Shown here in pieces: positions 13,730 through 39,636 of a stretch of DNA of 64,000 bases (its first letter is position 1; every line of letters begins with the position of its first letter). The position numbers and the translations under genes are program-made. Source of the stretch: Pseudovirgaria hyperparasitica (Eukaryota); the NCBI GenBank assembly GCA_010093815.1, contig ML996567.1; one strand, given 5' to 3'. A model generated the notes under the pieces. The model did not search any database, was not told where the DNA came from, and saw only the letters and a program-made list of their open reading frames with translations.

Positions 13730-15358
13730 TTAGGCTGGATTAGCACAGGGCAGAGCAAACACCAAGGACATCCGACAGTCAGAGTACAAAACGAAGACGG
13801 GAACGACGCCCTTAAGATACAGGCATGTCGGCGAAAGCGACAAAGAATCGCCTGTTGATTGTTCATCAGTCCCGAGTCTTTCAAGTATTTCAAGGGGCGC
13901 TATGCCCCGGGTAGATCAATGGAATCCGATCGGACACTGCGGCTAATGAAGACTTGAGTGGAGACATAGCAGTCAATATCAGTCTTGCCTAATATTACTG
14001 TCCCGTTTTCCTATCTGTGACTACGTGAGAGACTCCAGGCCATGTCACTAGCGCCTCAGGCAGCTTCATCCATCAGATCCATTTCCAGCCTAGCGCACTT
14101 GTCCCTTGTGATTCCATGTAATTCACACTTCACGTCTACCACACTTTTCTTCTATTGCAACTCACAATTCTCTTGCAAAGACACCCCGACGGCGCCCAAG
14201 GCTATACGCCCTCGCATTATCTTGGTCCGCACGTCCAATTGTAATACTTTACAGCCCCGCACATGTCGAAAGAGGATCGGGTATAACTTACCCATTTCAT
14301 CAGCTGTGGCGTTTGGCTTGACGAGCTGACTGGCCAATTCGACGGGCTGAATACGCCGCATCCTACCAGTTTTGAATCCTGTTGCAGCCGACCGTTGCAC
14401 ACACAATGCCATGTGGTACCCATAGTGCACACATGGCACAGCCTCCGTCCTTGAACAATGGAGACAGGACCAGGATCCTGGCAATGAATCAATCACCTGC
14501 ACAACTGCGTATTCTGGAAGGGAGCTTTCAGTCAACAAGTGTGTTTTGACTCGCGACGTGGCGAGGTAGAGGAACGACAGTGAAGCGACGGTCCTCGCTG
14601 ATCCTCGATGATCCTCGTGCCGCGACAGAGGGACGTGAGATGAGATGCTCTCTTGGTTGAATACGAAGACGAAGTCACCTCCGGGTACGCGAGGCTGCAC
14701 AGCACAACACCACGCAAGACTCTGCTCACGCCTAGAGTCTTCTCCATGATGCCGAGCAGTCACAGACAGGTAAGCGTTGCCAAGTGTGGACTTTGGACCG
14801 TCGCCTCCATCGGCAGCCTTGCTTACTTTAAGTCAACCACTCGGTTTCTCCAGCTACACAAACAACGCCATTCCACAGACACAGACGTGGCTGCAGCTTA
14901 TGCAAGAGGCGTCGACCAGTTACCAGTGACCAAACATGCGTATGTATCACTGGGAGTCTTGTGCCTGCCATGTGCGGGAGAGATTTGCACGACAGCCGAC
15001 AGGGTTCTACGTGTTGGAATTGGGATGTTTGTTGGTTCACACGGCCAAGTGTTGTTACAGCAAGTGAAGCCAGTGCCACTTTGTGATCTCTAGCCTGGGG
15101 CAGTTGGGTAGTCTGCCCGCAGATCTGGGGTTGGACACTAGCAAGGGGTCTCTAGTGTGCCCTGTGACTGTATCCCGATGTCTCCCTGAATGGCCAATGG
15201 TTGTTTGTGTTCTGAACTGCAAATATCCTGGGGACGGCAGAAGGCCTGTAGGGCAGATCGTTATGCTTTGCCATAAGAGTCGGACACCCCGCCTCGCGCT
15301 CGCATTTTTTTCTTCTTGAACCACTGGCAACCACAGCCTTGTGATTGAGTCCTCCATC

Positions 15359-17262
15359 ATGGTCAGATATATCACGAACACCTACGCTATTTGCGGCTTT
15401 GCCGCCATTGGTGGTGGCCTCTTCGGCTTCGATATCAGCTCCATGTATGTGAATATTTCGATACGTTCAAATTGCATGATAATGTACTAACAATTCATAG
15501 GAGTGGTGTCCTCGGCACGGAGGCATACAAGAACTACTTTGGCAATCCCACTTCGTATCGTCAAGGTGGCATCACGGCCTCTATGCCTGCTGGATCTCTT
15601 GCTGGATCCCTCGCCTCGTCTTTCATCGCCGACAAACTGTCCAGAAGGGCTGCTATTCAGATCGCAGCTTTAATCTGGATCGTTGGTGCAATTCTACAAA
15701 CCGCTTCCAATGGTATTCCTTTGCTTTGCGTGGGCCGTGTGGTTGGTGGCTTTGCCATCGGTATCGCCTCTTCTATCGTTCCTGTCTATCAGTCTGGTAC
15801 GCCGTTCTTGTCCGAAGACTGCAATGTCTGCTGACATCATACAGAGATAGCGGCAAAGGAGATTCGCGGACGTGTCGTCTCTCTACAACAGTGGGCTATC
15901 ACTTGGTAAGTAGTGATGTCCCTGACCCGTAATTTTCAAGGTCTCACGCGCTCTCAGGGGCATCTTAATCCAATACTTCGTTCAGTACGGATCTTCCTTC
16001 GTCGATGGAGGTGCCAAAAACCCCAATCAAGGTACTGCTGCGTTCCGGATTCCTTGGGGTATCCAGATGATTCCCGGCGCCATCCTGTTCGTCGGCATGT
16101 TCTTCTTGCCTTACTCTCCACGTTGGCTTGCCAGCAAGGACCGCTGGGAGGAAGCTATCCAGACTCTTGCTGATCTCCACGGTAATGGGGATATAAACAA
16201 CCCCAAAGTTCTTGCCGAGTACCAGGAGATTGAGGAAGCTCTCCGTTTCGAGCGTGAGGAAGCCATCTCAAGTTACAGTGCCCTCGCTGAGCCACGAATG
16301 CTGAAGCGTGTCATTCTTGGTATGTCCATTCAGATGTGGTCTCAGCTCTGCGGTATGAACATCATGGTGAGTTCACTCTTGTCACAAACCATGAGACCTA
16401 CAACTAATGACTTTAGATGTACTACATCGTCTATATCATGGAAGGCGCTGGAATCGGCGACGCTCTTCTCGCCTCCAGTATCCAGTACATCATTGTAAAA
16501 TGCCCCGTCCCATGTAACCCTCAAACATCCCACTAACAATAAGTAGAATGTTGTTCTTACACTTCCCGCTATCCTCTACCTCGACAAAATCGGCCGCCGT
16601 CCCTCTATGCTTGTTGGTTCTTTCTTCATGATGTCCTGGCTCTTCATCGAAGGTGCCCTCCAAGCAGTCTACGGCGAGCCCAACCCCGACACAACCGCGA
16701 AAGACATCTCATGGGTCGTCATTGGCAAGCCTGCCGTCTCAAAGGCCATCGTAGCATGCTCCTTCCTATTCGTCGCCACCTTCGCCACAACCTGGGGTCC
16801 ATCGAGCTGGACATATCCAGCTGAGATCTTCCCCGCGAAGATCCGTGCAAAGGTCAGTCTATCTCACGTCCAATTCACATCCGTATACACTTTTTCTAAT
16901 AAAGAAAAATACAGGCAGTCTCCCTCGCAACCGCATCAAACTGGACATGGAACTGCGCCCTCGCCTTCGCCGTACCCCCGCTTCTCTTCAACATCAACTG
17001 GAAAATGTACATGATCTTCGCCACCTTCAACGGCGCCGCCCTGATTCACATCTTCCTCACCGCGCCAGAGACCAAGGGCAAGACGCTCGAGGAGATGGAC
17101 GAGGTGTTTGACTCGGGCCGGCCGGCGTGGCGGGGTGTGTCCAAGGAGAGTCGCCTGGACAAGCTGCAGCAGGAGATTGAGCGCGGTGAGCTCAAGATTG
17201 CGGCGCCGATGGGTGCGCGTTCGGGGAGTGTGGAGCATGCTAGTGTGGAGCCGAAGAATTGA
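15359..17262 (+). CDS. MFS sugar porter (high-affinity glucose transporter-like), multi-exon
   Basis: MVRYITNTYAICGFAAIGGGLFGFDISSM, ADKLSRR, VPVYQSE, IRGRVVSLQQWAIT, PYSPRWL, SQLCGMNIM, WGPSSWTYPAEIFP, PETKGKTLEEMD. Confidence 0.93.
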
Positions 17263-26397: not shown

Positions 26398-27402
26398 TCA
26401 GAGCTTCTCACTGATCGTGTACGCTCTCGTCTCTTTCTCACACCAGTCCCAGAACTCGCTCGCAAGCCCCTTTCCACCCTCCTCCTTTCCCTTCGCCGCC
26501 TCTAGCACATCTGGCCTCAACTTCTCCGTCCCGATCTGGCCCCATGGCATCACATACACGCCGTTCCTCTCCAACCCAATATCCGGCGAGCACCCGGCGT
26601 AAAGCTCCGTCGCAGCGCCAAACTCCGCATGGTAGCACCCCATCAACAATATCGCCCTGCCTATCCACCCCATATGTCTCTGCAATTCCGACCTCAGGTT
26701 GCCCGGGTTGAAGCTCGCACTTACGATGCCCTCGCGTCCATACCTCCTCGCGAACTCACTACCCAGGAAGAAGTTCCCAGCCTTCGACATTCCGTAGTTG
26801 AGCCATGGGTTCGGGTCGATTTCCGGGCCGTCGGGTCCAAGCTGAACTCCGTATTTGGGCGTGGCGACCTGGACCCCGATGCTACCGGCCCAGGTTACGC
26901 GTACGGAGCCAGGTGGAGAGGTCTGCGCCGTGGAACGGAGGACAGGCAGAAGAGCGGTGCTGAGCAGGAACGGGCCAAGGCAGTTCGTGCCCATCTGCAG
27001 CTCGTGGCCTTGCGCGGTGACGGAGCCTGCGGCGGGCACCATGACGCCGGCATTGTTGTACAGGACGTCCAGTCTCGACTCCTTGGCCATGAAGGCGGCC
27101 GCGGCGGCGCTCACGGTGGGCAGGTCGGACAGGTCGAGCTGCAGGAAGTCCAGCTTGCCGGTTGAGGATGGTGCAGCATGTTGGATGTCTGTAAGGGCGG
27201 CATTGTATTTCTCGGAGCTGCGTCCGGCGATGTAGACGGTTGCATTGCGGGAGTAGAGGATGCGGGCGAGCTCTTTGCCCACGCCGGCGTAGCCGCCTGT
27301 GACGATGTGGACGCGGCCGGTTTGGTCGGGAAGAGTGTCGATGGTCAGGGGAGGGCTGGGGATGAAGAAGGATTGCGAGAGGATTGATGATGCTTGTCCC
27401 AT
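26398..27402 (-). CDS. Short-chain dehydrogenase/reductase (retinol-dehydrogenase-like)
   Basis: TGGYAGVG Rossmann motif, LYNNAGVM, YGMSK catalytic YxxxK, NPGNLRSEL. Confidence 0.92.
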   Translation of the reverse strand: MGQASSILSQSFFIPSPPLTIDTLPDQTGRVHIVTGGYAGVGKELARILYSRNATVYIAGRSSEKYNAALTDIQHAAPSSTGKLDFLQLDLSDLPTVSAAAAAFMAKESRLDVLYNNAGVMVPAAGSVTAQGHELQMGTNCLGPFLLSTALLPVLRSTAQTSPPGSVRVTWAGSIGVQVATPKYGVQLGPDGPEIDPNPWLNYGMSKAGNFFLGSEFARRYGREGIVSASFNPGNLRSELQRHMGWIGRAILLMGCYHAEFGAATELYAGCSPDIGLERNGVYVMPWGQIGTEKLRPDVLEAAKGKEEGGKGLASEFWDWCEKETRAYTISEKL

Positions 27403-27800
27403 GTTTTTTTGCGGCTCACGTGAGCTGTACGATGCTGCACGATATATGCTAGTGAGTCGAGATTAGGATAAGCCCCCTCGGAATAGCGAGAGTCCTCGGA
27501 AATCACACGACTTTCTTCGGGTAATCGTGAGATGGATGGCTTTTGATACTTCGACATGAAATCGTCCAGGAGGTGATTAATAAGGTCAGACTTGGACATG
27601 GATTGTTTATGCGTGGAAAGTTCGAGTCATTGCACTAGTCCGATTCCTATCAGCAAGGATCCACAGCGTCGCTTACATGGATCATCAGTTCCAGGGAATT
27701 GGCACAGAGTGAAGTGCATGTGTTTATAGCGTTATGGGTCGTATGGAATTGCTTGACTACGGGCATGGTTTTATTTCTGTTGCCTAACTATTGTGAAATT

Positions 27801-28814
27801 TTATTTCAAATGAGCTATGTTTGCCTCAACACTCTCTCTAAGAGGAATGAGTTTCTCCTGGCCAAAGTTCTTGCGTAGAATCTCCTCAGTACGTGGCTTC
27901 CGCAAAATAACACTTAGATCATTGCCTGGGTTCTCCAAGCGGTTGTTGAACTTATGATCAGGACGAAGCTCCTGCAGAATGTCGATGATAATGTTTTTGT
28001 TGAATGGGTCAGTGAACGCGAAGACCCGCTCATTCTGTATCTCAGGATCGATCAAAGCGGCGACATGTAGCCGTGCACAATCTCGGACATCAACGTGATA
28101 CTGTGGAGCTGGAGTGTCCATTGCTGTACCTCCATTGTACGTGTCTGGAACCCAATTGCCAGTGCTCGCAGGCTGGTTGTCAGGGTCGATGATTGGGCCC
28201 ATGTTTGTATTTGGCAGTACGGAATTGGCAACGAAATGAGGCTTCTTCTCCTTTACAAACTTCCATAGCGCCTGCTCGGCTTGAGTCTTGCTCGCACCAT
28301 ATACATCCCAGGCTCGATCTTCCTTAATAGGACCTGGCGCCCACGCACGCTCGACGCACTCTTCGTTCCAGGTGTTCTCGTCGATATCGAACTTGACATT
28401 TGGCTTCGGATTTGTTGCTGCCGTGGACGAGCTAGTGTAAACTAAGCGCTTCACACTGGGCTCAGCGGCCGTAGATTCGAGAACATGTTCGATTCCAGCA
28501 ATGACAACCGGAATGACCTTTTGCGGATCTGGGTCGAAGGTCAAGATGCTTGCCATGTGGACGACTCCAGAGACTCCTTTGACGGCATTATCGAATGCAC
28601 CCTTCACAGACATATCTGGCACAACGGCAATCTCGAGTGATCCAGGGCCGTATTTCTTGTTGAAATGATCCAGCAACCATTTGCCCTTATCCTCTGAGCG
28701 GACTGTTCCCCGCACTTTGAAGCCTGCGATGAGAAGCTGGTCAACGGTATGACTCGCGATGAATCCATTAGCACCTGTCACTAGGACGAGGGAGCCTTTC
28801 GAAATTGCGGACAT
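27801..28814 (-). CDS. Extended SDR, aldehyde reductase II / dihydroflavonol-reductase-like
   Basis: VLVTGANGFIASH, VRGTVRS, VVHMAS, YTSSSTA, YGASKTQAE, VDVRDCARLHV. Start taken at MSAISKG. Confidence 0.92.
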   Translation of the reverse strand: MSAISKGSLVLVTGANGFIASHTVDQLLIAGFKVRGTVRSEDKGKWLLDHFNKKYGPGSLEIAVVPDMSVKGAFDNAVKGVSGVVHMASILTFDPDPQKVIPVVIAGIEHVLESTAAEPSVKRLVYTSSSTAATNPKPNVKFDIDENTWNEECVERAWAPGPIKEDRAWDVYGASKTQAEQALWKFVKEKKPHFVANSVLPNTNMGPIIDPDNQPASTGNWVPDTYNGGTAMDTPAPQYHVDVRDCARLHVAALIDPEIQNERVFAFTDPFNKNIIIDILQELRPDHKFNNRLENPGNDLSVILRKPRTEEILRKNFGQEKLIPLRESVEANIAHLK

Positions 28815-29123
28815 GATGGACGGAAATTTGGTAATGATCAAGGTGAATGAAACAAAGAAGCCCGTACCATATGTTGTAAACGAAAGCTTTTGTAGTGGAC
28901 CAAGTGAAGGGTTGTGTTGGCTTTGTAAGCTGGCTGCATCGATAGGTGCTCGGTTCGATGCGCCTCAATTGTACCACTTGTAGTTTTGAGCAATTTCATG
29001 CACGATAAACAATCCGTCATGAAGACCGAGGTGTGTTACAAAGAAATGATGACATATCCATACGTCTATCGGGACCCCACTTACCGAAGAGCACCTAAGT
29101 GGTTCCTCGTTCATGCTTATACA

Positions 29124-29563
29124 CAGACGTGAGCATATACAATCGGATACAATCCGAAGTACTAGATTAGGATTGTATGATTAGTCACCCTAAAAGTACA
29201 GATTGAGCTTGGAATCTATGCTAAGGGATTGAGATTGCTTGTGTTAGATTGATTAAAGTGGGTGTATAGCCGGGGCCCTATATTGGGCTATATTCAGGCA
29301 TTATTTATGCCTAAGGCTGCCATATTAGTGCCTTAGGCTAGACTTTGGGCCTTAGGTAGAAATAATGCCTGAATATGGCCTAATATTAGGCCCGCAGCTA
29401 TTTACCCCACTTTATTCAATCTAACACAATCAATCTGACCAATCAGATTAAGATTGTACCGTCTTGGCAATCATTTTGAGTCGTAGATTGAGCTTGTATT
29501 CTCTATCAAAATTTTGGCCCAGATTGAGATTGCATAGATTCGGATTGTATATGCTCACGTCTG
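29124..29563. mobile_element. Non-autonomous hAT-type DNA transposon (MITE), 440 bp
   Basis: Perfect 21-bp TIRs CAGACGTGAGCATATACAATC (29124-29144 and reverse complement 29543-29563); 8-bp TSD CTTATACA (29116-29123, 29564-29571); no ORF; many GATTG/CAATC subterminal motifs. Confidence 0.93.
29232..29436. repeat. Internal imperfect inverted repeat (~86-bp arms) within the MITE
   Basis: agattgcttgtgttagattgattaaagtggg...attcaggcattatt...cctaaggc pairs with gccttagg...aataatgcctgaat...cccactttattcaatctaacacaatcaatct. Confidence 0.9.
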
Positions 29564-29679
29564 CTTATACACTAGCAACACAAGGATTAGTTTAGTGGGA
29601 ACTCATGAGTGGGCCGAATAGAAATATTCAACATAGATCCTTTACTGGTCCAGTTACACGCAGATTATGATATTATGAA

Positions 29680-30912
29680 TCAATTATAGTACAACACATT
29701 GCCTTCGAACAGACGCCTCGCTGTTCGCGACACTGTGCACTGGACAACATGTGAACTGCTCTCCAGGAGTAGGACATCAGCGTCAACAGAAATTGAGCCG
29801 CCGGGATGCTTGACTGTGACAGCGCGAGTTTTGCCACTTGTGGCGGGCGCTTTACAGTACATAGTCTCTGCGTTGTTGGGACTCGGTGTACGTTCCGGTG
29901 TTGGTAGAGCCTCAGAGGTTGATAGCAGGTTTGGCACGGTGCCATCTATGCAGACGGCCGCACCAAGACACACTGCTCCTGTAAGTTGTAGACTTGGGTG
30001 CGGTTTTCCCATGCTGAAAGATTGGACCTGAATATCCATACCAGGACTTGAAGAAGGCCACACAATCGCGATCTTGGGCGTGCCTCGCCTGGCAGCGGCT
30101 TCTTCTTGATTATTGGCCATGTTCATCTTGATGGCACCAGCCCTGCGAATGCATTCGACCGTGTCCACGTAAAGTTGGTCTTGCGGCATTGCTGCTGACA
30201 ACCAAGTTGGGAGAGTAAAAGCGTTGACAAATACAAAGGGGTTTGCAGCATCGACTAAAGTAGCTTGTACGGTGAATGGAGTGTCAAAGGTCGATACGGT
30301 AAGCTCCTCAACCCGATTACCGCTGGGAAACAATGCCCCTGTGACGCTTCCTGCAGGATCAACAAATGCGACGTGGACTTGACGGCCACTATCAACCACC
30401 CCAGCCATGTCATATAAGCCATCCTCTTCGAAATGGTCGTTCTCATCAACATCCACGGTCTCGACCATGATTCGAGAAGTGTTCGTGTTGAAAATCCTGA
30501 CTTCGACCTGGCGAACACCTGGATCTGCTATCACCAATCGTTCATCCAAGGCAAAAGGGCCCACGCCGCTGGCCATGTTCCCACAATTGCCACTGAAATC
30601 AACAGTCTCCATTCCAACAGAGACTTGAGCAAAGGTATACTCCACATCAGCATCAGAGCGCTGGGAAGGACTAATGATCGCGACCTTCGAAGTTGTTGAT
30701 GTCGCACCCCCGACGCCGTCAATCTGACGAGGCTCGTTGTTCTTTGAGCCCATTGCTGCCAGTAGAGGCCTGACCCATTGATCTTGTGATGCTGGTAGAT
30801 CCTTTCTGTGTATAAAAAGTCCCTTCGAAGTCCCGGCCCGCATCAGAACGGCGGGCAGGACGTGTCGAACTCTTTTTCGTTTGAGTGTCGTTTCTTGCAT
30901 GTGGACACCCAT
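29680..30912 (-). CDS. PrpF-family (DUF453) isomerase; aconitate/methylaconitate isomerase-like
   Basis: MRAGTSKGLF, RQIDGVGGATSTTSKVAII, catalytic GNCGN, RIFNTNT, VDAANPFVFV, MGKPH, HPGG, RTARRLFEG. Start may be 30900. Confidence 0.92.
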   Translation of the reverse strand: MGVHMQETTLKRKRVRHVLPAVLMRAGTSKGLFIHRKDLPASQDQWVRPLLAAMGSKNNEPRQIDGVGGATSTTSKVAIISPSQRSDADVEYTFAQVSVGMETVDFSGNCGNMASGVGPFALDERLVIADPGVRQVEVRIFNTNTSRIMVETVDVDENDHFEEDGLYDMAGVVDSGRQVHVAFVDPAGSVTGALFPSGNRVEELTVSTFDTPFTVQATLVDAANPFVFVNAFTLPTWLSAAMPQDQLYVDTVECIRRAGAIKMNMANNQEEAAARRGTPKIAIVWPSSSPGMDIQVQSFSMGKPHPSLQLTGAVCLGAAVCIDGTVPNLLSTSEALPTPERTPSPNNAETMYCKAPATSGKTRAVTVKHPGGSISVDADVLLLESSSHVVQCTVSRTARRLFEGNVLYYN

Positions 30913-31212
30913 ATTGATCTTTGTTACTGTAATGCCCTGGGTTTGATGAAGTGTTCCGGTAGTGCGTGGCTGTGGTGATGAGATAGCTTGACCACGCAGC
31001 GAGACATATGTTCGGCACGACGTGGCCTATTGTACTAGAGTCCATCTTCTTATGATGTTATTGCGTACGACGGGTGCAGTGATCAGGTCTGCAATCCCGC
31101 GGCTACTACATCCTGTCAAAGTCCAAAAAGAGGCATCACGACGATCTTGTTACTGACATGAAGCGCGACTTCAGTGAGGGAAGTGTATGTGGTGAGTACA
31201 CACTGAGTGATC

Positions 31213-31225
31213 TGTACCCGCGGGA
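31213..31225 (+). promoter_or_regulatory. Putative cluster regulator site TGTACCCGCGGGA (prpF/TF divergent promoter)
   Basis: Identical 13-mer at 35711-35723; inverted TGTACCCGC cores at 31614-31622 and 35555-35563. Confidence 0.6.
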
Positions 31226-31763
31226 AGTTTGCCATCTGCTACATTAGGTAATAATAGTGACCACTGAGTAATCAAAGTCGGCGTCACTTTGGTCACTCAA
31301 ACAGTACTAGCCCGATTCTCCTGACGCCTGAACCACTTTGCGACCCCAAAGTGAAGAGTTGATAACGCATCGTTTCTGAAATTCTCAGCGTTGAAGAAAT
31401 AACGCCAATAGACCGCTCAGCATAATATGCTCCTCGCTATATGTTGATTGTTGAATAGTTCATCTTTCGTTCTCGCTGGTTGGCCTAGCATGGATGCGTG
31501 TGAGCCGGGCAGCGCTAAGGAAGGTCTCTATACCACCCAGGGCTTACGTCTCATCTCACTAATCCACTACTCAATAACACATGTGCCGTCTATATGGGGC
31601 GGCTGCCGAAGAAGCGGGTACATGGCCTACTTAACAAGGTTCAGTTCCCGCGGCCAGCACCACTTGTACGATTGACTACACCCATCACTGCCATGCTCCG
31701 TCACCTACCCGTCTCGAATCAGTTCACAGAGGATCCGACCGAGAAGGCGTCGGACGTATAGTC

Positions 31764-34077
31764 ATGCCTACTCGAGAGTCGCTTACAGCCAATGGAAAGC
31801 CCAGAAAGCGTGCTACCGAAGCTTGTACTACATGCCGCCGCAGAAAGATCAAATGCGATGGGGCCCAGCCCAATTGCGTCAATTGCAAAACTTTCAATCG
31901 GATATGCTCGTACGAGCCGATCGAAGAAGAAGTCCGCCGCCAGCAAAAGCCGAGGAAACGTGTTCGGCGTGGAACGACATCGGATGCATCGCCTACAAGC
32001 AGCCTAATCGGAAATGAAGGCGATCAACAAACAACTGTTCCTGCCAGAGGTAAGCGAGTGATTCGGGTTGTCGTGTGGCTCCATGTTCCGGATCTTTCTG
32101 CCTTTGTAGTTCAGTATTCTAGCGGCCTACACATAATATACCAGTTGAGCCCGGTAGGGCCTCTAGCATATGCCGAATCAGCCGAGCTAATATTTAGGAT
32201 CAGACACCCAAAGAAATGTTTCTACGATAGTCTTCTCCGCAAACGGAACTTCAAGCTACCATGGGCAAACGAGCGCTCTTTTTGAAGAGCTGCATTCTGA
32301 GCCTTTACTGCAAGCAAGACCGATACCCAGGATATCTGAGGCCTGGGCCGAAAAGGGCCTTGTCGCAGAAGCGGCTAAACAAAGACAGATGGAAGACGTG
32401 AACTTTGCCGCAGGAACCCTTGATTTCGATGGAGTTGATCCTGATCTCGGCATGCATCTCCTTTCTCTGCATTGGAATCGTCAACATCACTCATTCTTGA
32501 TTACGTATAGACCTGTGTTCATGAGAGATATGGCCTGCCAGGGGCCTTACTTCTCAAGGATTCTATTGAACGCCATCTACTTTGGAGCAGCAAAGTTTAG
32601 TCCTCGCCTAGAAGTTCGGAAGGACCCGAATGATGTTAGGACTGCTGGGTGGCAGTTCAGAGAGCGTGTTCGAGAACTTCTAGGGAGCGCACTAGACAAA
32701 AGTGAGATTACTACCATTCAGGCTCTCCTAGTCATGACAAACTCCCTATTCGCTCTTGGCGACGAACGAAGCGCAGCTTGGCTGTACGCTGGACTTGCAT
32801 TTCGGATGATCATCGATCTAGGCATGCATGTTGACGCGCCGGACATCTTGTCTGTTCGCAAACTTTCAGAAGAAGATATCGAAGTACGTCGTCGAGTCTT
32901 CTGGGGAGCGTTTGTTGTCGACAAGATCCAGTCGCTGTACCATGGCCGACCAGTGACTTTTCAAGGGCAAGACGCTAGAGTCCCCATAAAGTTCCTAGAC
33001 ACATTTGAGGAGCTGGAGAGGTGGAAGCCTTTTGCTTATACTCCACAAATCGAACAATATGGCGGTTGTCCTGCGTTTAGCGTATCGACCTTTAGCCATT
33101 TGTGCAAGCTTTCTGTCATTCTGGGGGACATTCTTACATCGATTTATGCTGAAAACAGCTCAGAAAGAACTCCAGACGAGCTATCCAGGCTTTTAGAGGA
33201 GCTGAATGGAAAGCTGGTCCAATGGCGCAATTCAATTCCGAAGCACATGGAATTCGATCATACTAAGCCGACGCTCTCAGATCCGCCGCCACATATTTTC
33301 TCTTTACTCATCATGCACCAAGTATTGGTGATCCTACTACATCGTCCCTTTGTCGCTGATGGCCACCTCTATCGCAATGCACGATCAGTTCCTGCCAATG
33401 CGTTTGCGGCGTGCGCAACAGCAGCCACTCAGATCGTACATCTTTTACGAGCCTACGACAAAGCCTTTTCGATCCGCAAAGCCCCGTATCTCATCTCATA
33501 TGCTTGCTACGTTAGTGCTACTATACATGCGCGGATTGTGGCGCAACGTGGCCGCTTATCTGAGGCATATTCTTCTGTTGAGACTTGTCTCGCTGTCTTC
33601 GAAGAGAACCAAGAGACTAACTGGGCTGTCAAGCGAGCCAATATCATCATCCAGAATCTACTCAAGAAGCTGGGTTCTACTTTGCCCCAGAGACCATGGA
33701 AGATCTCCAGTAATGCGAACATACCTAACTCCAGTGGCGATACTGACCCACCTCCTGCGACGGCGCCGTTATCACTTGCCGACTCCTCTGCCGTTGAGCA
33801 GCCGTCCCCAACGTCGAGTCTGGACTTGGACGCAATCATACAGAGTTTTGCCCCTGACCAGGATCTATCTCAGTCTGAGTTTACAATCCGCACCGATCAT
33901 CCGATTTCTGGAGATTTCTATCCACCACAAGGGCAGTCTGGTTCATACAACTCCGCGTATCCATTGCAGATGGCCTACAATCCATATAACTCTGATCCTA
34001 ACATTGACGATCTCTTGTTCGGGTTCAACAGCTCTACTCTCGACAATTTCTCCTTCCCAGACTGGACAGGTACATGA
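31764..34077 (+). CDS. Zn(II)2Cys6 transcription factor with fungal-specific TF middle homology domain
   Basis: ACTTCRRRKIKCDGAQPNCVNC...C; intron 32050-32197 (GTAAGC..GCTAAT..TAG) joins in frame; TTIQALL, AWLYAGLAFRMIIDLGMH, EVRRRVFWGAFVVDK, ILLHRPF. Confidence 0.92.
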
Positions 34078-34393
34078 TGCCAAAATAGCGTCGGAAACTT
34101 GTCTTTCAGTCAAAAGGAATCTACTTTCAGCGTGAACACGGAATATGGAAGATATGATGGATTGACATATAGGACTAAAAGACCAATAGCATTGGCGATA
34201 TCTCTTGGGTGCTTTGTCCGAAATTCATTCGTCTGAAGCATCGCACCTTTCAGGCAGGTACTAGGTCTTGATGGATATTGGTCAACCATCTAGCTCCTCA
34301 TTGCGGTGTTACAAGTGGAATGCTTAGCAAAAGCACCTACCCAGCCGAACACTGAACACAACTTCCTCGTAACATTCCATAATGTGATATCTC

Positions 34394-35436
34394 CTACATC
34401 AACACAGTCTCTGTCCTTGCATACATCAAGGCAGCTGTAATCTTCTCATACACTGTGAAGACAATACCACCACTAAACACCAATCTCCCGAGCCTCATCG
34501 TGCTGCCAGACCAGAACCCTCGGATACCAGAAGAGGACAGAATATCTCTCACTGCCTGAACAGTAGTCGCTCCTTGAGTACTCTGCGTACGAGTCTTGGT
34601 TGCATCGAACGGCTGCGTCGCGTAGACGGTCACAACACCTGCCGCAGCACCAACTCCAAAAGTCGTCACGCTATTCTGCGGCAGACTCAAGTTGACAGCA
34701 AAGTCTTTGAGGACGTTGTACGAACCCATGCGTACAGCTGACGTTGATCCTTGCTTCAAGGTCGTTGAAAAGAGACCTCGATATAGACCGCGGACGCCGT
34801 TCTCTCGGACGATTATGCCAATGGCATGGAAGCCTCCTCGAAATCTTCTGGCGCCCTTTGCGTCGTCAATTCTGGTCTACTCATCAGCCACAGCACAAGC
34901 AGTAATGGTCCTGATGTTCTTACAGCGCCGTCTTCACGCGTTCCGTCGGCGTCACAGCAATAACACTCTCAACACATCCTGCCACCATACCGGCAAAAAT
35001 CCCTCGCATCGGAGACAACTTCCCCTTTTCATCCACGAGCGTATTTCGTATCGAATCGAAGCCGAGAAATCGCACTCCGGCCTTGAATGCAGTGCCAATA
35101 ATCAGCGTCGAGCATCCTGTGTATACAGCCCCTGATATCGTAAGCCACGTCCGTCTTTGTGAACTATAGTAGTAGACTTACCTATGCCCTCCGTCCGTGC
35201 GACTTGCGTGATGATTTTGAAGGGGTTTCGCGAGCCGGACTGGCCGTGTAGCTGCACTCTGGTCTTCGCGAACTCGAATGGATACTGTAGCATCACGAGA
35301 TTAGCTTCAGGCTGGTATTACTGTCAGAGTGTGGACAGCGACTTACTGTGGCTGTGGCTTCGACAGCACCCGCAATGCTCCCGGCGAATAGGGACACGCC
35401 AGGCGTTGGTTTCTGTTTCTGTGTATCTGCACGCAT
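34394..35436 (-). CDS. Mitochondrial tricarboxylate carrier (Ctp1/Mtt-like SLC25 family)
   Basis: Exons 35436-35347, 35284-35182, 35131-34924, 34871-34394 give AGSIAGAVEATATYPFEFAKTRVQL, FKAGVRF, VTPTERVKTALIDD, KQGSTSAVRMGSY, QPFDATKTRTQ, RLGRLVFSGGIVFTVYE; three carrier signature repeats. Confidence 0.9.
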
Positions 35437-35710
35437 GCTGTCTATTTCTCCATGATCTATCCTCTATGCAGGCTGGAAATGATGTGTAGCTCTATGCAGA
35501 ATGCTTTATAATAGACTGCCTTGGGCTTGCGTTGCTTACACTGCTAGAATTATTGCGGGTACATTCGTCTGCCTGTTTTCGATAGGATTAGGACTACGTA
35601 GATATACATCCGGCCTTTTACTTCCGTCGCACATCCGCGTTCTACTAGGTTCCGGGTAGATCCCGAGGCATGCTACTAGTTACTAAGTGAGTAGTGTGTA
35701 CACGTGTGTA

Positions 35711-35723
35711 TGTACCCGCGGGA
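35711..35723 (+). promoter_or_regulatory. Putative cluster regulator site TGTACCCGCGGGA (carrier/MFS divergent promoter)
   Basis: Identical to 31213-31225. Confidence 0.6.
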
Positions 35724-35971
35724 CATGACTATACGGGGGCGGGATCAACGACCCGATTCAGACGACCCGCCTCCACATCGTAATTACCCCAGATCAGACA
35801 CTACATACGACCAGACATACCAAGACGCTTGCAACATGGCTGATGTTGGTTTAATTATAAAGCTTGTCACTACGACCTCGCCGTGAAAAAACAAGACCTG
35901 CAAGCCAAGACGCTGTCGAGTCGTCTGTATTGGTGACCGCAACCCGTCAGAAGTGGCATTCATTTCCCAAA

Positions 35972-37717
35972 ATGGCAGCCGAAATCGAAAAACAGTCTCA
36001 TGTTCACCAAGAGTACACCGGCTCAGAGACTCGCACGCCGGTGCAGATCCAGTCGCAATTTGCCCTGCTGCGCGACCTCTCGGACGACCAGATGCAAGCT
36101 CTGGACAAGAGAATAGTCAAGATCCTGGATTGGCGGATGATGCCCATCATCACACTGATGTTCCTAATGAGGTAGTTTCATCTCGCCTCGTCAAGGCAGT
36201 AATATGCGAAACATGAATTGACTCGTTTCAGCTATCTCGACCGCATCAATGTCTCCAATGCTCGTCTCGCAGGCCTGCAAGACGACTTGCACATGTCCGA
36301 CACGATCTGGAACGCCGGGATTTCGACATTCTATGTGGGGTATTTGATCGGGCAGCTTCCAGGGGTGATATGGATGACGAAGATGAAGCCGAATCTGTTC
36401 TTGCCGGGGGTGATGCTCGCGTGGAGTGCTGCGACGATATGCATGCCGGCGATGACGAAGTGGGTTTTCTGAGTGTGTTCGCAGAGGGGAGACTTTGCAG
36501 CGTTGACACGGTGCTAGTGGAACTGGCTTCGTGCTCTGTCGATTCGTCATCGGGCTCTGTGAGGCGCCGTTCTTCCCTGGTATCACGCTGAGTGAGTACG
36601 CAACGAGGAAGGAAGTGGTGGATGTGGTGCTGATTGAGAGTAGTGACGTCGTCGTGGTATAACAAGCGTGAGAGTCCCACTCGGATGGCAGTGTGGCATG
36701 CCGGCAACACCGTCTCTAACATACTGTCTGGCTTCCTTGCCGCTGGTATCTTGACAAACATGGAAGGCGTCCATGGTCTGCACAGCTGGCAGTGGTTTTT
36801 CATCATAGAAGGTGCAGCATCAATTGCGATAGCTGTGGCAGCTTTCTTCCTTCTCCCAAGTTGGCCACACGATACGAGGTTTCTCACAGAAGAGGAGCGT
36901 GAGATGGCTCAGTATAGAGTTCTGGTATCGAATGGAGGCGTCGAAGAAGCCTTGGGTGGAACGTGGGATGGCATAAAGGAGGCGGCCAAAGACCCTTTCA
37001 CATGGTTGTTTTGTGGAATGCATTTTGCCTTGGTTACGGCGCAGAGCTTCAAGGACTTCTTGCCATCGGTAAGCCTCTTCGTACCAGGCCATCCAGATTC
37101 AGAGCACTTACAGAAGCATAGATCATGGAGACGTTCGGCTTCGACACGCTAACCACGTACCTCGTCCAAGCACCTCCCTATGCAATCGCGTATGCTATAT
37201 CATGCGGACTTGCCTACTCGTCAGGTTATTTCCAAGAGTCTTGCTTTCACATCATCGTCCCGATAATCTTCAGTGCCTTGGGTGCTTCACTGTTGATCGC
37301 AACCCTCAACGTTGGCGCACGTTACTTCGGGTTGATCCTGCTTATAACCGGCACGTATAGCGGACTCAATCTGCAGCTCTCATGGGAGACTACAGTGGTG
37401 CCCCATCCACGTAAGAAGAAAGCTGCACTGATCGCCATTGCAAATGCTATTTCGCAAGTCTCGCACTGGTTCAGTAAGTATTCTGAGCTTCGATGGGAGC
37501 GTTCATCTGACAGCGCAAAGGCCCACAATTTTTCCCGACATCCCAAGAGCCGTTTTATCGCCTAGGGGGTGGATTGATCCTTTTTGGCTGTCTTTTCGCC
37601 GTCATAATATGTCTGTTGGTAACTTGGCGGGCGAAAGTCCTCAACAAAAAGCTCGATGAGGCGGAAGGGTGGTCGGAGCATACGGGTAATGAACGGGGTT
37701 GGAGATATGTATACTAG
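35972..37717 (+). CDS. MFS anion:cation symporter (Dal5/Tna1/tartrate-permease-like), multi-exon
   Basis: LDWRMMPIITLMFLM|SYLDRINVSNARLAG, FYVGYLIGQLP, RFVIGLCEAPFFPG, SWYNKRESPTRMA, WQWFFIIEG, FLTEEER, C-terminal GWRYVY*. Confidence 0.9.
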
Positions 37718-37862
37718 GCTCAGCTCCCGCAGGAATTTACAGTTTGACGATAAGATGATTTTTTGGACCTGGTCGTTTAAGTGTTGATAGGTCACGATCC
37801 GATAGACCAGGCAGATGATTGCATAGTTCGATGCAAGCACCGGGTGATATCAGTGCGTCATA

Positions 37863-39636
37863 CTATATCCCTCGTTTTCTTTTGCCTTGTTTCGTCCCCT
37901 TCCTTGCCTTTTGTGAATTTTTTGTGGGAGGAGAGATGCTTGCCAGATCGTTCAGTAATACAGTCACAGCTCTTTCCCACATGCTGTCGTCTTCAGACTG
38001 CTCTGAGTGAGCAAGGAACTCTGCCAATTTCAACGGCGGTTGCATACGATGGACGAGATCTCTAATCGTAGTTTTACATTTCTCCGTGACTTGATCATCT
38101 GAAGGCATGGAATTATGTACTGCTAAGCACTGAAATAAGATCCTGAGCGAGTAAAGTACGGCTTGATATTCGGCAGAAGTCTGGATATATTCCCAATCGA
38201 TTCCATGTGTAGCACCTCTAAACAAATCCACCATGTTTCGTTTGGAAGGGAGTCTTCTACCTCGAGAGATCCGGGTAATGCAAACATATCTCATGCACAT
38301 TAGACGCCATCGATCGTTTTGTTTGTGGCCTGGAAACAGGTGTGCTATATGCGTGGCATTTTCGATGAAAGTCTGGCAATGCTCGATAATCTCTGGCTGG
38401 GAAAGCGAATCGATATAAGTGCCACCTATCTGGTGGCCAATTCTCGAGAACTCACGAGTACCACCAGGCGTTCCATTGAGTCGAGCAATAGCGTATCCAA
38501 GCTGCCGGAAGTATCGACCAGAGTCCCAAGGCGAATGCTTATCAGGGTCATCAAGTAGCACAGGCATGTATATCCTGCAGTCCGACTGCAAGGAGTTGAT
38601 CTCCGAGAAGGCCAGTCGATCAGAAGAAAATACTCCGGCATGCAGTAAATACTCCGAGACTCTGGGATCAACCATGATGTTCTCTGTGAGGTGCCTCGTC
38701 ATAAAGGTTCTGCTGAACGAAGTCTCATGGCAATTATGCAAGTATGGTTGCGCAAACCTGTCTATGTCGTCTCCAACTGAATCTTGGGATAGAGCGGCGG
38801 ACGCACATTGCCTGAGCGATTTGTGGCTGTCCAGGGTAAACTGAAATGCAACCTGAGTCATTGCGGTAACACCAAGTTCACGTGTAATGCCTCGAGGTAT
38901 GAAGCATGGGACACTGAACATCGCTCCAGACTCATCTGTCGGCATGTGCACTCCAAGGTCATTCAGAAAAACTACAGTTCCGTCGCCAATATCGTGAATA
39001 ATGAGATCTGAGTCTGACGTAATGACTATCCCACCAGTAGAGTGCGCCAGCGTTGCACAATGATCATCAGCTTCGCCATCAACAAGTGACACCATGTTCT
39101 GATATTTGCTCAGCAGCAACGCCTCTATCACCGCCGGCACCAAGAATGGTAGGGGTGGGAAAGTGCCGAGAGCCCATGCGCGCGTATGGATGTTCTGCTT
39201 TGCCTTGAAGGATATCAGGCGATTCAAGCTGCTTGTAAGTCGATCGAGACGTTCTTTACGCTTCGATATTGGTAGACCGCCATCAAAATAGATTGCCTTA
39301 CTAACAATTGTCAGTATAGAGAGACTGGATTAGGGCCGAAATGTCAAAGCATTCAAATAATGGAGTCTACTCTATTTTGACGTCAACATACACCTGCCCA
39401 TTGTAAGCTTCCAACTTCGACAGCCAATCTACAGTAGCTTCCCCGATCGCATGGTAAGTGAGTGTAGAGGCGAATGTGTTTGTCGCCCCACTCGCTAAAA
39501 TCTCTTGGGAGAAGATGAAATGCGCCAATGCAGGTCCATCAATGATGAGTTGTTTTGGCTTGTCGTCATTCGTAATTTCGAATTGTAGAGACGTCGCATA
39601 GGGCTGTACCTTGGATAGAAAGCCAGGTATACCCAT
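37863..39636 (-). CDS. Asteroid/XPG_I-like PIN-domain nuclease family protein
   Basis: MGIPGFLSKV, IIDGPALAH, IYFDGGLPISKRKERLDRL, PFLVPAVIEAL, GEADDHCA, ITSDSDLIIHD, DPRVSE; one intron near 39300-39390. Confidence 0.85.

Follow-up and report, generated by a model that had tools for sequence, protein, structure and literature searches.

This report describes a four-gene cluster at positions 29680-37717 of a 64,000-nucleotide stretch of contig ML996567.1 (assembly GCA_010093815.1) from Pseudovirgaria hyperparasitica, a dothideomycete of the order Acrospermales; the whole stretch, at its full length, is referred to as the window. The cluster comprises genes for a PrpF-family isomerase, a Zn2Cys6 transcription factor (TF), a Ctp1-like mitochondrial tricarboxylate carrier, and a permease of the major facilitator superfamily (MFS) that appears nearest to the anion:cation symporter (ACS) type. 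Comparison with other fungi confirmed that this set is a conserved cluster of filamentous ascomycetes and more than a chance adjacency, and it is tentatively read here as a system for the use of trans-aconitate. Genes in the window were called from stop-to-stop open reading frames (ORFs) and Pfam matches, and the models were fixed by means of database proteins identical to the window. The resulting features are as follows.

29680-30912, minus strand: PrpF-family isomerase gene (P0001; PF04303); a single exon, 29683-30912, of 410 amino acids plus stop, with a 100% match to P0001.
30913-31763: divergent promoter region of the PrpF and TF genes, with three CCGCGG sites.
31764-34077, plus strand: Zn2Cys6 transcription factor gene; exon 1 at approximately 31764-32049 and exon 2 at approximately 32204-34077; about 719 amino acids.
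34394-35436, minus strand: Ctp1-like mitochondrial tricarboxylate carrier gene (P0121); four exons, 292 amino acids; a member of the cluster-linked paralogue clade.
35437-35971: divergent promoter region of the carrier and MFS genes, with one CCGCGG site.
35972-37717, plus strand: MFS permease gene of apparent ACS type (P0241); six exons (35972-37714), 495 amino acids.

In Pfam, PF04303 matches 29680-31026 on the minus strand at 311.3 bits against a gathering score of 27, and the plus-strand ORF at 31635-34077 bears both Zn_clus (40.9 bits) and Fungal_trans (99 bits), which places it among the Zn2Cys6 factors. Mito_carr matches three minus-strand exons within 34394-35317, and MFS_1 matches plus-strand exons within 36203-37152. 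Mapping of P0121 gives the carrier exons as 35347-35436, 35180-35284, 34923-35129, and 34397-34870. The genes are thus arranged as two divergent pairs, PrpF (minus) with TF (plus) and carrier (minus) with MFS (plus), and the intervening DNA holds no further coding sequence. An initial annotation of this DNA had given the same positions, the same two pairs, and the same four family assignments, all of which were borne out by the ORFs, Pfam, and family models.

Assembled contigs were available from two public runs of one sample in one study; they represent no inducing condition and are unfit for ranking expression. The TF intron (32047>32202, GT..AG) is spliced out in contigs of both runs, as are all three carrier introns (CT..AC ends) in the public-run contigs, and the contigs therefore derive from RNA. 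The PrpF region (29615-31184) is covered by one unspliced contig piece. The MFS gene's own introns are not skipped among the contigs listed, which is no sign of silence because contigs drop rare forms.

Conservation of the set was found in two ways. Three protein searches, with PrpF, the carrier, and the MFS permease, returned two to three homologues with NCBI locus tags no more than three numbers apart in 11 other ascomycete species of the Dothideomycetes, Sordariomycetes, and Eurotiomycetes:

Verticillium albo-atrum: ACHAQA_000747/748/749 (PrpF, carrier, MFS).
Pyricularia grisea: MCOR25_007938/007936/007935, neighbouring tags.
P. pennisetigena: PpBr36_04211/04213, neighbouring tags.
Monosporascus: DL771_003389/003387, neighbouring tags.
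Paraphaeosphaeria minitans: PMIN02_006727/006730, neighbouring tags.
Didymella pomorum: SLS61_003694/003696, neighbouring tags.
Cercospora zeina: BST61_g9488/g9487, neighbouring tags.
Clonostachys chloroleuca: V2G26_004116/004117, neighbouring tags.
Exophiala bonariae: LTR84_010942/010941, neighbouring tags.
Helicocarpus griseus: AJ79_07422/07421, neighbouring tags.
P. sporulosa: DPSP01_008587/008588, neighbouring tags.

Linkage is not seen in Thermomyces stellatus, Aspergillus pseudoustus, Zasmidium cellare, Bisporella sp., and Fusarium decemcellulare, where the homologues are on separate contigs or have tags far apart. Furthermore, metagenome contigs were scanned with an alignment of 32 cluster-type carriers, 80 loci were kept, and partner genes were sought in them by tblastn with the window's PrpF, MFS, and TF exon 2. 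At least one partner gene accompanies the carrier in 36 of the 45 loci of the window-type carrier clade (PrpF in 17, TF in 30, and MFS in 24); among the 17 such loci of at least 10 kb, all have at least one partner and 13 have all three. Several metagenome loci are near-duplicates from related samples, such that the 13 complete loci represent 11 distinct ones. Together with the window, these make 12 complete clusters, in which the four genes occur in approximately eight orders or orientations; a set that has lasted through so many rearrangements is being maintained. The co-location across fungi that the initial annotation had proposed to examine was thus found both in the locus tags and in the metagenome loci.

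A sugar-porter-family transporter gene (TIGR00879) is a fifth member in five distinct loci, with 58-81% identity between copies, and in three of the five it shares a divergent, CCGCGG-bearing promoter with PrpF or MFS. It is not in the window's cluster; the window has a Sugar_tr gene (15349-17011) approximately 34% identical to it and 13 kb off. The five positions are as follows.

L015: 2656-4553.
L019: 8793-10642.
L040: 14309-16270.
L041: 5065-6537.
L033: 840-2131.

One further locus (L047, 72-4754) has PrpF flanked by genes for a 7-bladed lactonase-type protein, a carboxymuconolactone-decarboxylase-family protein, and an alpha/beta hydrolase; this set, seen once, looks like part of a fungal beta-ketoadipate-type pathway.

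The closest named relatives of P0121 include a "tricarboxylate transport protein" and a "solute carrier family 25 citrate transporter 1", which place it in the Ctp1-like subfamily. A carrier tree of 75 loci and the window, drawn after exclusion of five loci whose alignment covered fewer than 200 residues, separates at its midpoint into two clades without mixing, and the window falls in the clade with partner genes. In the other Ctp1-like clade, partner genes are present in 0 of 30 loci, 17 of which have a length of 10 kb or more. Identity to the window's carrier is 56-72% for cluster-linked carriers and 42-51% for those of the unlinked clade. The existence of a partner-linked clade distinct from a never-linked one argues that the cluster carrier is a dedicated paralogue and not the housekeeping Ctp1 orthologue, as judged across metagenome loci. 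The initial annotation had reckoned with a sole housekeeping Ctp1 as the finding that would undo its proposal, and the two-clade tree and the 0 of 30 argue against it. Three cluster-type carriers (P0135, P0171, and P0240) bear the NCBI name "CtIP-related endonuclease", presumably an annotation slip through the shared gene symbol CTP1.

A candidate regulatory element is shared by the promoters of the cluster. Upstream DNA of the cluster genes (700 bases per gene, from 11 loci plus the window) was searched for CGG/CCG pairs, among which the zero-spaced palindrome CCGCGG emerged, with 54 copies in 26.1 kb of upstream DNA against 33 in the remaining 234.9 kb. This 14.5-fold enrichment is the highest of all 6-mers, the runners-up being overlapping variants of the same site; CCGTGG is enriched 4-fold, and other GC-rich palindromes 0.5-1.4-fold. 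All 12 loci have CCGCGG upstream of PrpF, and for the TF, carrier, and MFS genes the figure is 10 of 12 each; the copies are frequently paired, with 23-170 bases between them, and the extended form reads T, not-A, CCGCGG, not-T, A. As a control, DNA upstream of the other-clade carriers has 4 copies in 19.8 kb (0.20 per kb). The window itself holds nine copies: one in the carrier coding sequence, four in the other 56 kb, and the following four in the two divergent promoters.

31097-31102: CCGCGG site 1, a candidate Zn2Cys6 binding site, in the PrpF/TF promoter.
31218-31223: CCGCGG site 2, in the PrpF/TF promoter.
31648-31653: CCGCGG site 3, in the PrpF/TF promoter.
35716-35721: CCGCGG site 4, in the carrier/MFS promoter.

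The enrichment argues for one common regulator and for co-regulation of the four genes. The same core is the known yeast Pdr1/Pdr3 element, and a Zn2Cys6 dimer site of such a shape is therefore ordinary. The cluster's own Zn2Cys6 factor may well be the protein that binds the CCGCGG sites, and the cluster is probably self-regulated.

The isomerase P0001 aligns end to end with the solved structures of PrpF, PA0793, Mii, YbhH, and LigU (E = 6e-53 to 7e-39). In an alignment with 2pvz and 2h9f, its motifs TSK and GNCGN fall on their counterparts in 2pvz and give Lys76 and Cys110 in P0001; the catalytic residues of Shewanella PrpF are Lys73 and Cys107. Of 120 homologues, 118 have the Lys motif and 94 the strict Cys motif. 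Two curated models were matched below their cut-offs: TIGR02334, the PrpF equivalog (235 bits against 440.55, on which true PrpF scores 739.8), and NF033377, the 4-oxalomesaconate (OMA) tautomerase GalD/LigU (266.5 bits against 440), which is the best curated model. The latter score carries no information on the substrate because the model gives 276 bits to a true PrpF encoded in a prpB-prpC-acnD-prpF operon and the best characterised match of Adi1, the aconitate isomerase of Ustilago, is likewise a Pseudomonas OMA tautomerase (PMC4720413).

P0001 is approximately equally distant, at 27-41% identity, from every bacterial subtype examined, including the plasmid-borne true PrpF (36-37.5%), a PrpF-domain gene on a Hydrogenophaga plasmid (37%), and GalD-type genes beside CHA aldolase (31-36%). 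All matches in the plasmid tblastn search (503 records) fall below 40% over a full-length match, and one short partial match reaches 48.9%. A quick maximum-likelihood tree of every third fungal homologue (41 of 120) together with six bacterial proteins gave a monophyletic fungal clade on a stem of length 2.05; outside it fall the TbrA-like and GalD-type proteins and the Agrobacterium gene beside CHA aldolase. Gene neighbourhoods of bacterial relatives were examined in a prokaryote scan of one genome per species, in which 80 loci were kept at 33-45% identity over the best segment and the peptide patterns of which favour Mii-like proteins. The neighbours are LeuCD-like hydratases of the aconitase family in 43, PrpB-like lyases in 41, TcuA in 8, and TctC in 5, and no subtype is clearly nearest. 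The LeuCD-like and PrpB-like neighbourhood is the context known for Mii in nicotinate fermentation. On the Hydrogenophaga plasmid (L002, 580-7146), the PrpF-domain gene shares an operon with genes for the tricarballylate dehydrogenase TcuA, for a hydratase of the LeuCD-like kind, and for two binding proteins of the TctC type; this operon may be a tricarballylate/aconitate route in which the isomerase corrects double-bond geometry. What these contexts have in common is that PrpF-family isomerases pass a cis-unsaturated acid to an aconitase-family hydratase. Since the bacterial contexts are mixed and no subtype is clearly nearest, the sequence does not name the substrate.

At least 45 residues precede the first motif in 30 of the 120 orthologues, and in 20 of these 30 the start is basic and acid-free, in the manner of a mitochondrial presequence. 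Long-form orthologues (P0002, P0005, P0008, P0016, P0020, P0029, P0043, P0045, and others) have an internal Met exactly at the start of the short form, which suggests that there are two start codons and that the protein is targeted to both cytosol and mitochondria. The window's PrpF is the short form only, an in-frame stop lying upstream of it. Papers on Verticillium in which a "methylitaconate delta2-delta3-isomerase" is named were set aside as having no bearing on the cluster; one of them reports an interaction of a peroxisomal protein with VDAG_01341, whose orthology to the window's gene is not established.

For the permease P0241, the best of five models is TIGR00893 (anion:cation symporter), at 185.2 bits over positions 1-394 of 399 and with a curated cut-off of 395; the family it appears nearest to is TC 2.A.1.14. 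Characterised members of this family are uptake permeases. An Aspergillus terreus protein is 79% identical to the window's MFS over one exon. Contigs of both runs contain a 53-base joint at 37059-37111 with CT..AC ends, i.e., a minus-strand intron, inside this plus-strand gene and 10 bases off its own predicted intron, and one contig spans the minus-strand XPG-domain gene (37866-39329) down across the MFS 3′ end (37112-39300). These contigs, which give neither strand nor abundance, suggest antisense read-through over the permease gene, whose introns 1-3 are not skipped in the contigs listed.

Further enzymes were sought by domain. PrpD/CadA-type, Lyase_1/Tad1-type, aconitase, and dioxygenase domains were found in 0 of the 77 long window ORFs scanned, and the PrpD, Lyase_1, aconitase, and dioxygenase families in none of the 130 further ORFs (130 amino acids or longer) of the 13 related loci, a length below which exons would escape. 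The claim of the initial annotation that the window lacks a Tad1/CadA-like decarboxylase was upheld and extends to the related loci. Likewise, no acnD, prpB, or prpC neighbourhood was found in the window or the 13 loci, and a neighbourhood of ring-cleavage dioxygenase, hydratase, and CHA aldolase was found in none of the 130 and 77 ORFs.

The cluster is best read, with a probability of a little under one half (roughly 0.47), as taking up an unsaturated tricarboxylate, most likely trans-aconitate, for the mitochondrial citric-acid cycle after one isomerisation. The substrate, the catabolic direction, the link between factor and motif, and the localisation are all points that we infer, rather than draw from any direct result. 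Itaconate-type acids, oxalomesaconate, and tricarballylate need further enzymes. As judged from established pathways, only aconitate would turn into a citric-acid-cycle intermediate by a single isomerisation. Since the cluster offers one enzyme and two or three transporters, with no second recurrent enzyme, trans-aconitate is the best guess. Briefly, the ACS-type permease would import the anion with protons, and the PrpF-family isomerase would turn trans-aconitate into cis-aconitate by means of its Lys/Cys pair. The dedicated Ctp1-like carrier would then exchange the tricarboxylate across the inner mitochondrial membrane, where aconitase would pull the unfavourable equilibrium forward. The Zn2Cys6 factor would bind T-N-CCGCGG-N-A in all promoters of the cluster, its own included, and the set would be switched on. 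Given its short N-terminus, the window isomerase would act in the cytosol, with the carrier importing cis-aconitate; in species with a presequence-like extension, it may also act in the matrix, the carrier then importing trans-aconitate. PrpF-family enzymes that interconvert cis- and trans-aconitate have been described, namely Adi1 (PMC4720413) and TarA and TbrA (PMC11495376).

The nearest functional parallel is tarRAB of Bacillus velezensis FZB42 (PMC11495376), a bacterial system for using trans-aconitate published in 2024. As in the fungal cluster as read here, the genes for a regulator, an isomerase of the PrpF superfamily, and an MFS importer adjoin, those for the regulator and the isomerase diverge, and a single isomerisation feeds the citric-acid cycle. 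The regulator is of the LysR type, in contrast to the fungal Zn2Cys6 factor, and the importer family possibly differs too, such that the parts match by analogy; the fungal cluster adds a mitochondrial carrier because of compartmentation. Fungi are mentioned 0 times in that paper (PMC11495376). Aspergillus niger is reported to clear trans-aconitate from cane vinasse, from 5.71 to 1.59 g/L in ten days, and a 2026 paper states that no native aconitate isomerase of this fungus has been identified. In the literature searched, no fungal isomerase, permease, or regulator is assigned to trans-aconitate, and no description of this ascomycete cluster was found, most subscription journals lying outside the coverage; what the searches did bring up were the Ustilago cluster, the bacterial Tar system, and papers on engineering. 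Carried further, and held with somewhat less assurance, the reading becomes that of a widespread and self-regulated regulon of filamentous ascomycetes for assimilating or detoxifying plant trans-aconitate. It would consist of an ACS permease, a PrpF-family isomerase placed in cytosol and mitochondria in many species, a carrier paralogue dedicated to aconitate, and a Zn2Cys6 factor acting via T-N-CCGCGG-N-A; it would be a eukaryotic, compartment-aware counterpart of tarRAB and would supply the missing native fungal aconitate isomerase.

Several points weigh against the trans-aconitate reading. It is drawn from sequence. P0001 lies below both curated equivalog cut-offs, and its sequence places it in no characterised subfamily. 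In the PrpF tree, the fungal clade forms a three-way split with true PrpF and an Agrobacterium/Hydrogenophaga pair linked to TcuA or GntR, and the branch of the window's PrpF is long, at 0.97 where the median is 0.21. Identity is only 26.6% to the PrpF protein of a Bacillus thuringiensis plasmid that sits beside a DMT transporter, a TbrA-like context, and a fungal-type MFS lies beside 0 of the 80 bacterial relatives kept. The permease scores below the ACS cut-off, and its direction of transport cannot be read from the sequence. The recurrence of the sugar-porter gene in five non-redundant loci could mean a different or additional substrate. The 12 loci of the motif search are related by descent, and the Poisson figure of 3e-43 for CCGCGG thus overstates their independence; on the other hand, the sequences flanking the sites are not conserved. 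Finally, the aconitate equilibrium lies at 88:12 trans:cis (PMC4720413), and the same parts could run towards production.

Another unsaturated di- or tricarboxylate may be the substrate of the same module of uptake, isomerisation, and mitochondrial entry, a less likely proposal than the main one, though the likeliest of the alternatives; the candidates are a methylaconitate, an acid of the itaconate/citraconate type, a ring-cleavage product resembling oxalomesaconate, or some plant acid not yet known. Known aconitate isomerases are no nearer to the enzyme than are the isomerases of methylaconitate, methylitaconate, or oxalomesaconate, the OMA tautomerase model is its best curated one, and both the sugar-porter gene and the lactonase, carboxymuconolactone-decarboxylase-family, and hydrolase genes of L047 would suit such a substrate. 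However, it would need a CoA transferase, hydratase, aldolase, or dioxygenase, none of which recurs in the 13 loci; the OMA score is uninformative as to substrate, and the single-step entry into the citric-acid cycle is peculiar to aconitate. Two known systems stand close. PrpF of the AcnD-dependent 2-methylcitrate cycle (Shewanella; 2pvz, 2pw0) is of the same fold family and shares the conserved Lys and Cys (phmmer of P0001 against 2pvz, E = 1.3e-52; the best plasmid-borne true PrpF is 37.5% identical). The window enzyme differs in reaching 235 of the 440.55 bits of TIGR02334 and in not being accompanied by AcnD, PrpB, or PrpC. In the methylcitrate cycles of fungi, the dehydratase is of the PrpD type. 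The 3-methylitaconate isomerase Mii of nicotinate fermentation (3g7k) is matched at E = 2.5e-49, and the LeuCD-like and PrpB-like partners seen with many of the bacterial relatives of P0001 are not in the fungal cluster.

Production and export are improbable. In this scheme, the carrier would export cis-aconitate from mitochondria, the isomerase would make trans-aconitate, and the MFS would secrete it, as in a Ustilago-like pathway halting before decarboxylation or a fungal counterpart of tbrAB. The Ustilago maydis cluster for itaconate (Adi1, Tad1, Mtt1, Itp1, Ria1, Cyp3, Rdo1; PMC4720413) groups a PrpF-family isomerase, a Ctp1-like carrier, an MFS transporter, and a regulator for exactly such a flow, much as the initial annotation had described it. 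The equilibrium given above favours trans-aconitate, TarA and TbrA are interchangeable, such that the isomerase does not set the direction (PMC11495376), and an engineered Aspergillus niger with MttA, an isomerase, and an exporter makes trans-aconitate. Nevertheless, the best model of the window's MFS is that of a family of uptake permeases, whereas Itp1 is EmrD-like and the Ustilago regulator is of the helix-loop-helix type (PMC4720413), in contrast to the ACS-type MFS and Zn2Cys6 factor of the window. Ustilago has a Tad1-type decarboxylase that the fungal cluster lacks in the window and the 13 related loci; Ustilago is a basidiomycete and the bearers of the present cluster are ascomycetes, and the direction is likely opposite. 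The tbrAB operon for trans-aconitate production in Bacillus thuringiensis (PMC11495376) likewise pairs a PrpF-family isomerase with a dedicated transporter; it differs in the distance of the Bt plasmid protein, in its DMT-family transporter, and in its export direction. Secretion of trans-aconitate by these ascomycete groups was not found in the literature searched. AexA of Aspergillus pseudoterreus is the one known fungal aconitate exporter. The itaconate cluster of Aspergillus terreus consists of CadA, MttA, MfsA, and a regulator. It resembles the window's cluster in bringing together a mitochondrial tricarboxylate carrier and an MFS in one acid-metabolism cluster, and it has a PrpD-family decarboxylase and no PrpF-family enzyme, the reverse of the window.

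That the four genes are neighbours merely by descent, with no common function, is hardly credible. The unlinked homologues of five species speak for it, and the survival of the set through approximately eight rearrangements, the specific upstream element common to the set, and the occurrence of the carrier paralogue solely in the cluster context speak against it.

Adjacent to the cluster, SDR (26401-27462) and NAD-dependent epimerase-like (27804-28964) genes were considered as members and rejected because no such domains recur in the 13 related loci; the epimerase-like gene lies two genes from the cluster. A contig of very high depth (approximately 1870 in X1) ends at 29000-29153, on the 5′ side of the epimerase-like gene, which thus seems strongly represented in the sample, contig depth being a poor measure of expression. 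Of the database records P0319 and P0252, one from Aureobasidium has NmrA/epimerase-type NAD(P)-binding domains fused to the MFS in 759 amino acids, and one from Fusarium is a 923-amino-acid fusion; in both, adjacent genes have probably been merged.

Grasses, sugar-cane residues, and soil are rich in trans-aconitate, which is an aconitase inhibitor. If the trans-aconitate reading is true, four genes and a promoter element would be named at once, in a testable catabolic cluster that has recruited its own mitochondrial carrier paralogue, and a native isomerase, carrier, permease, and inducible promoter would become available for aconitate and itaconate engineering. It would also raise the question of whether the cluster aids plant-associated fungi on aconitate-rich hosts and helps them cope with an aconitase-inhibiting plant acid. 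If the substrate differs, this widely conserved cluster would still give clean access to a fungal acid pathway not yet known.

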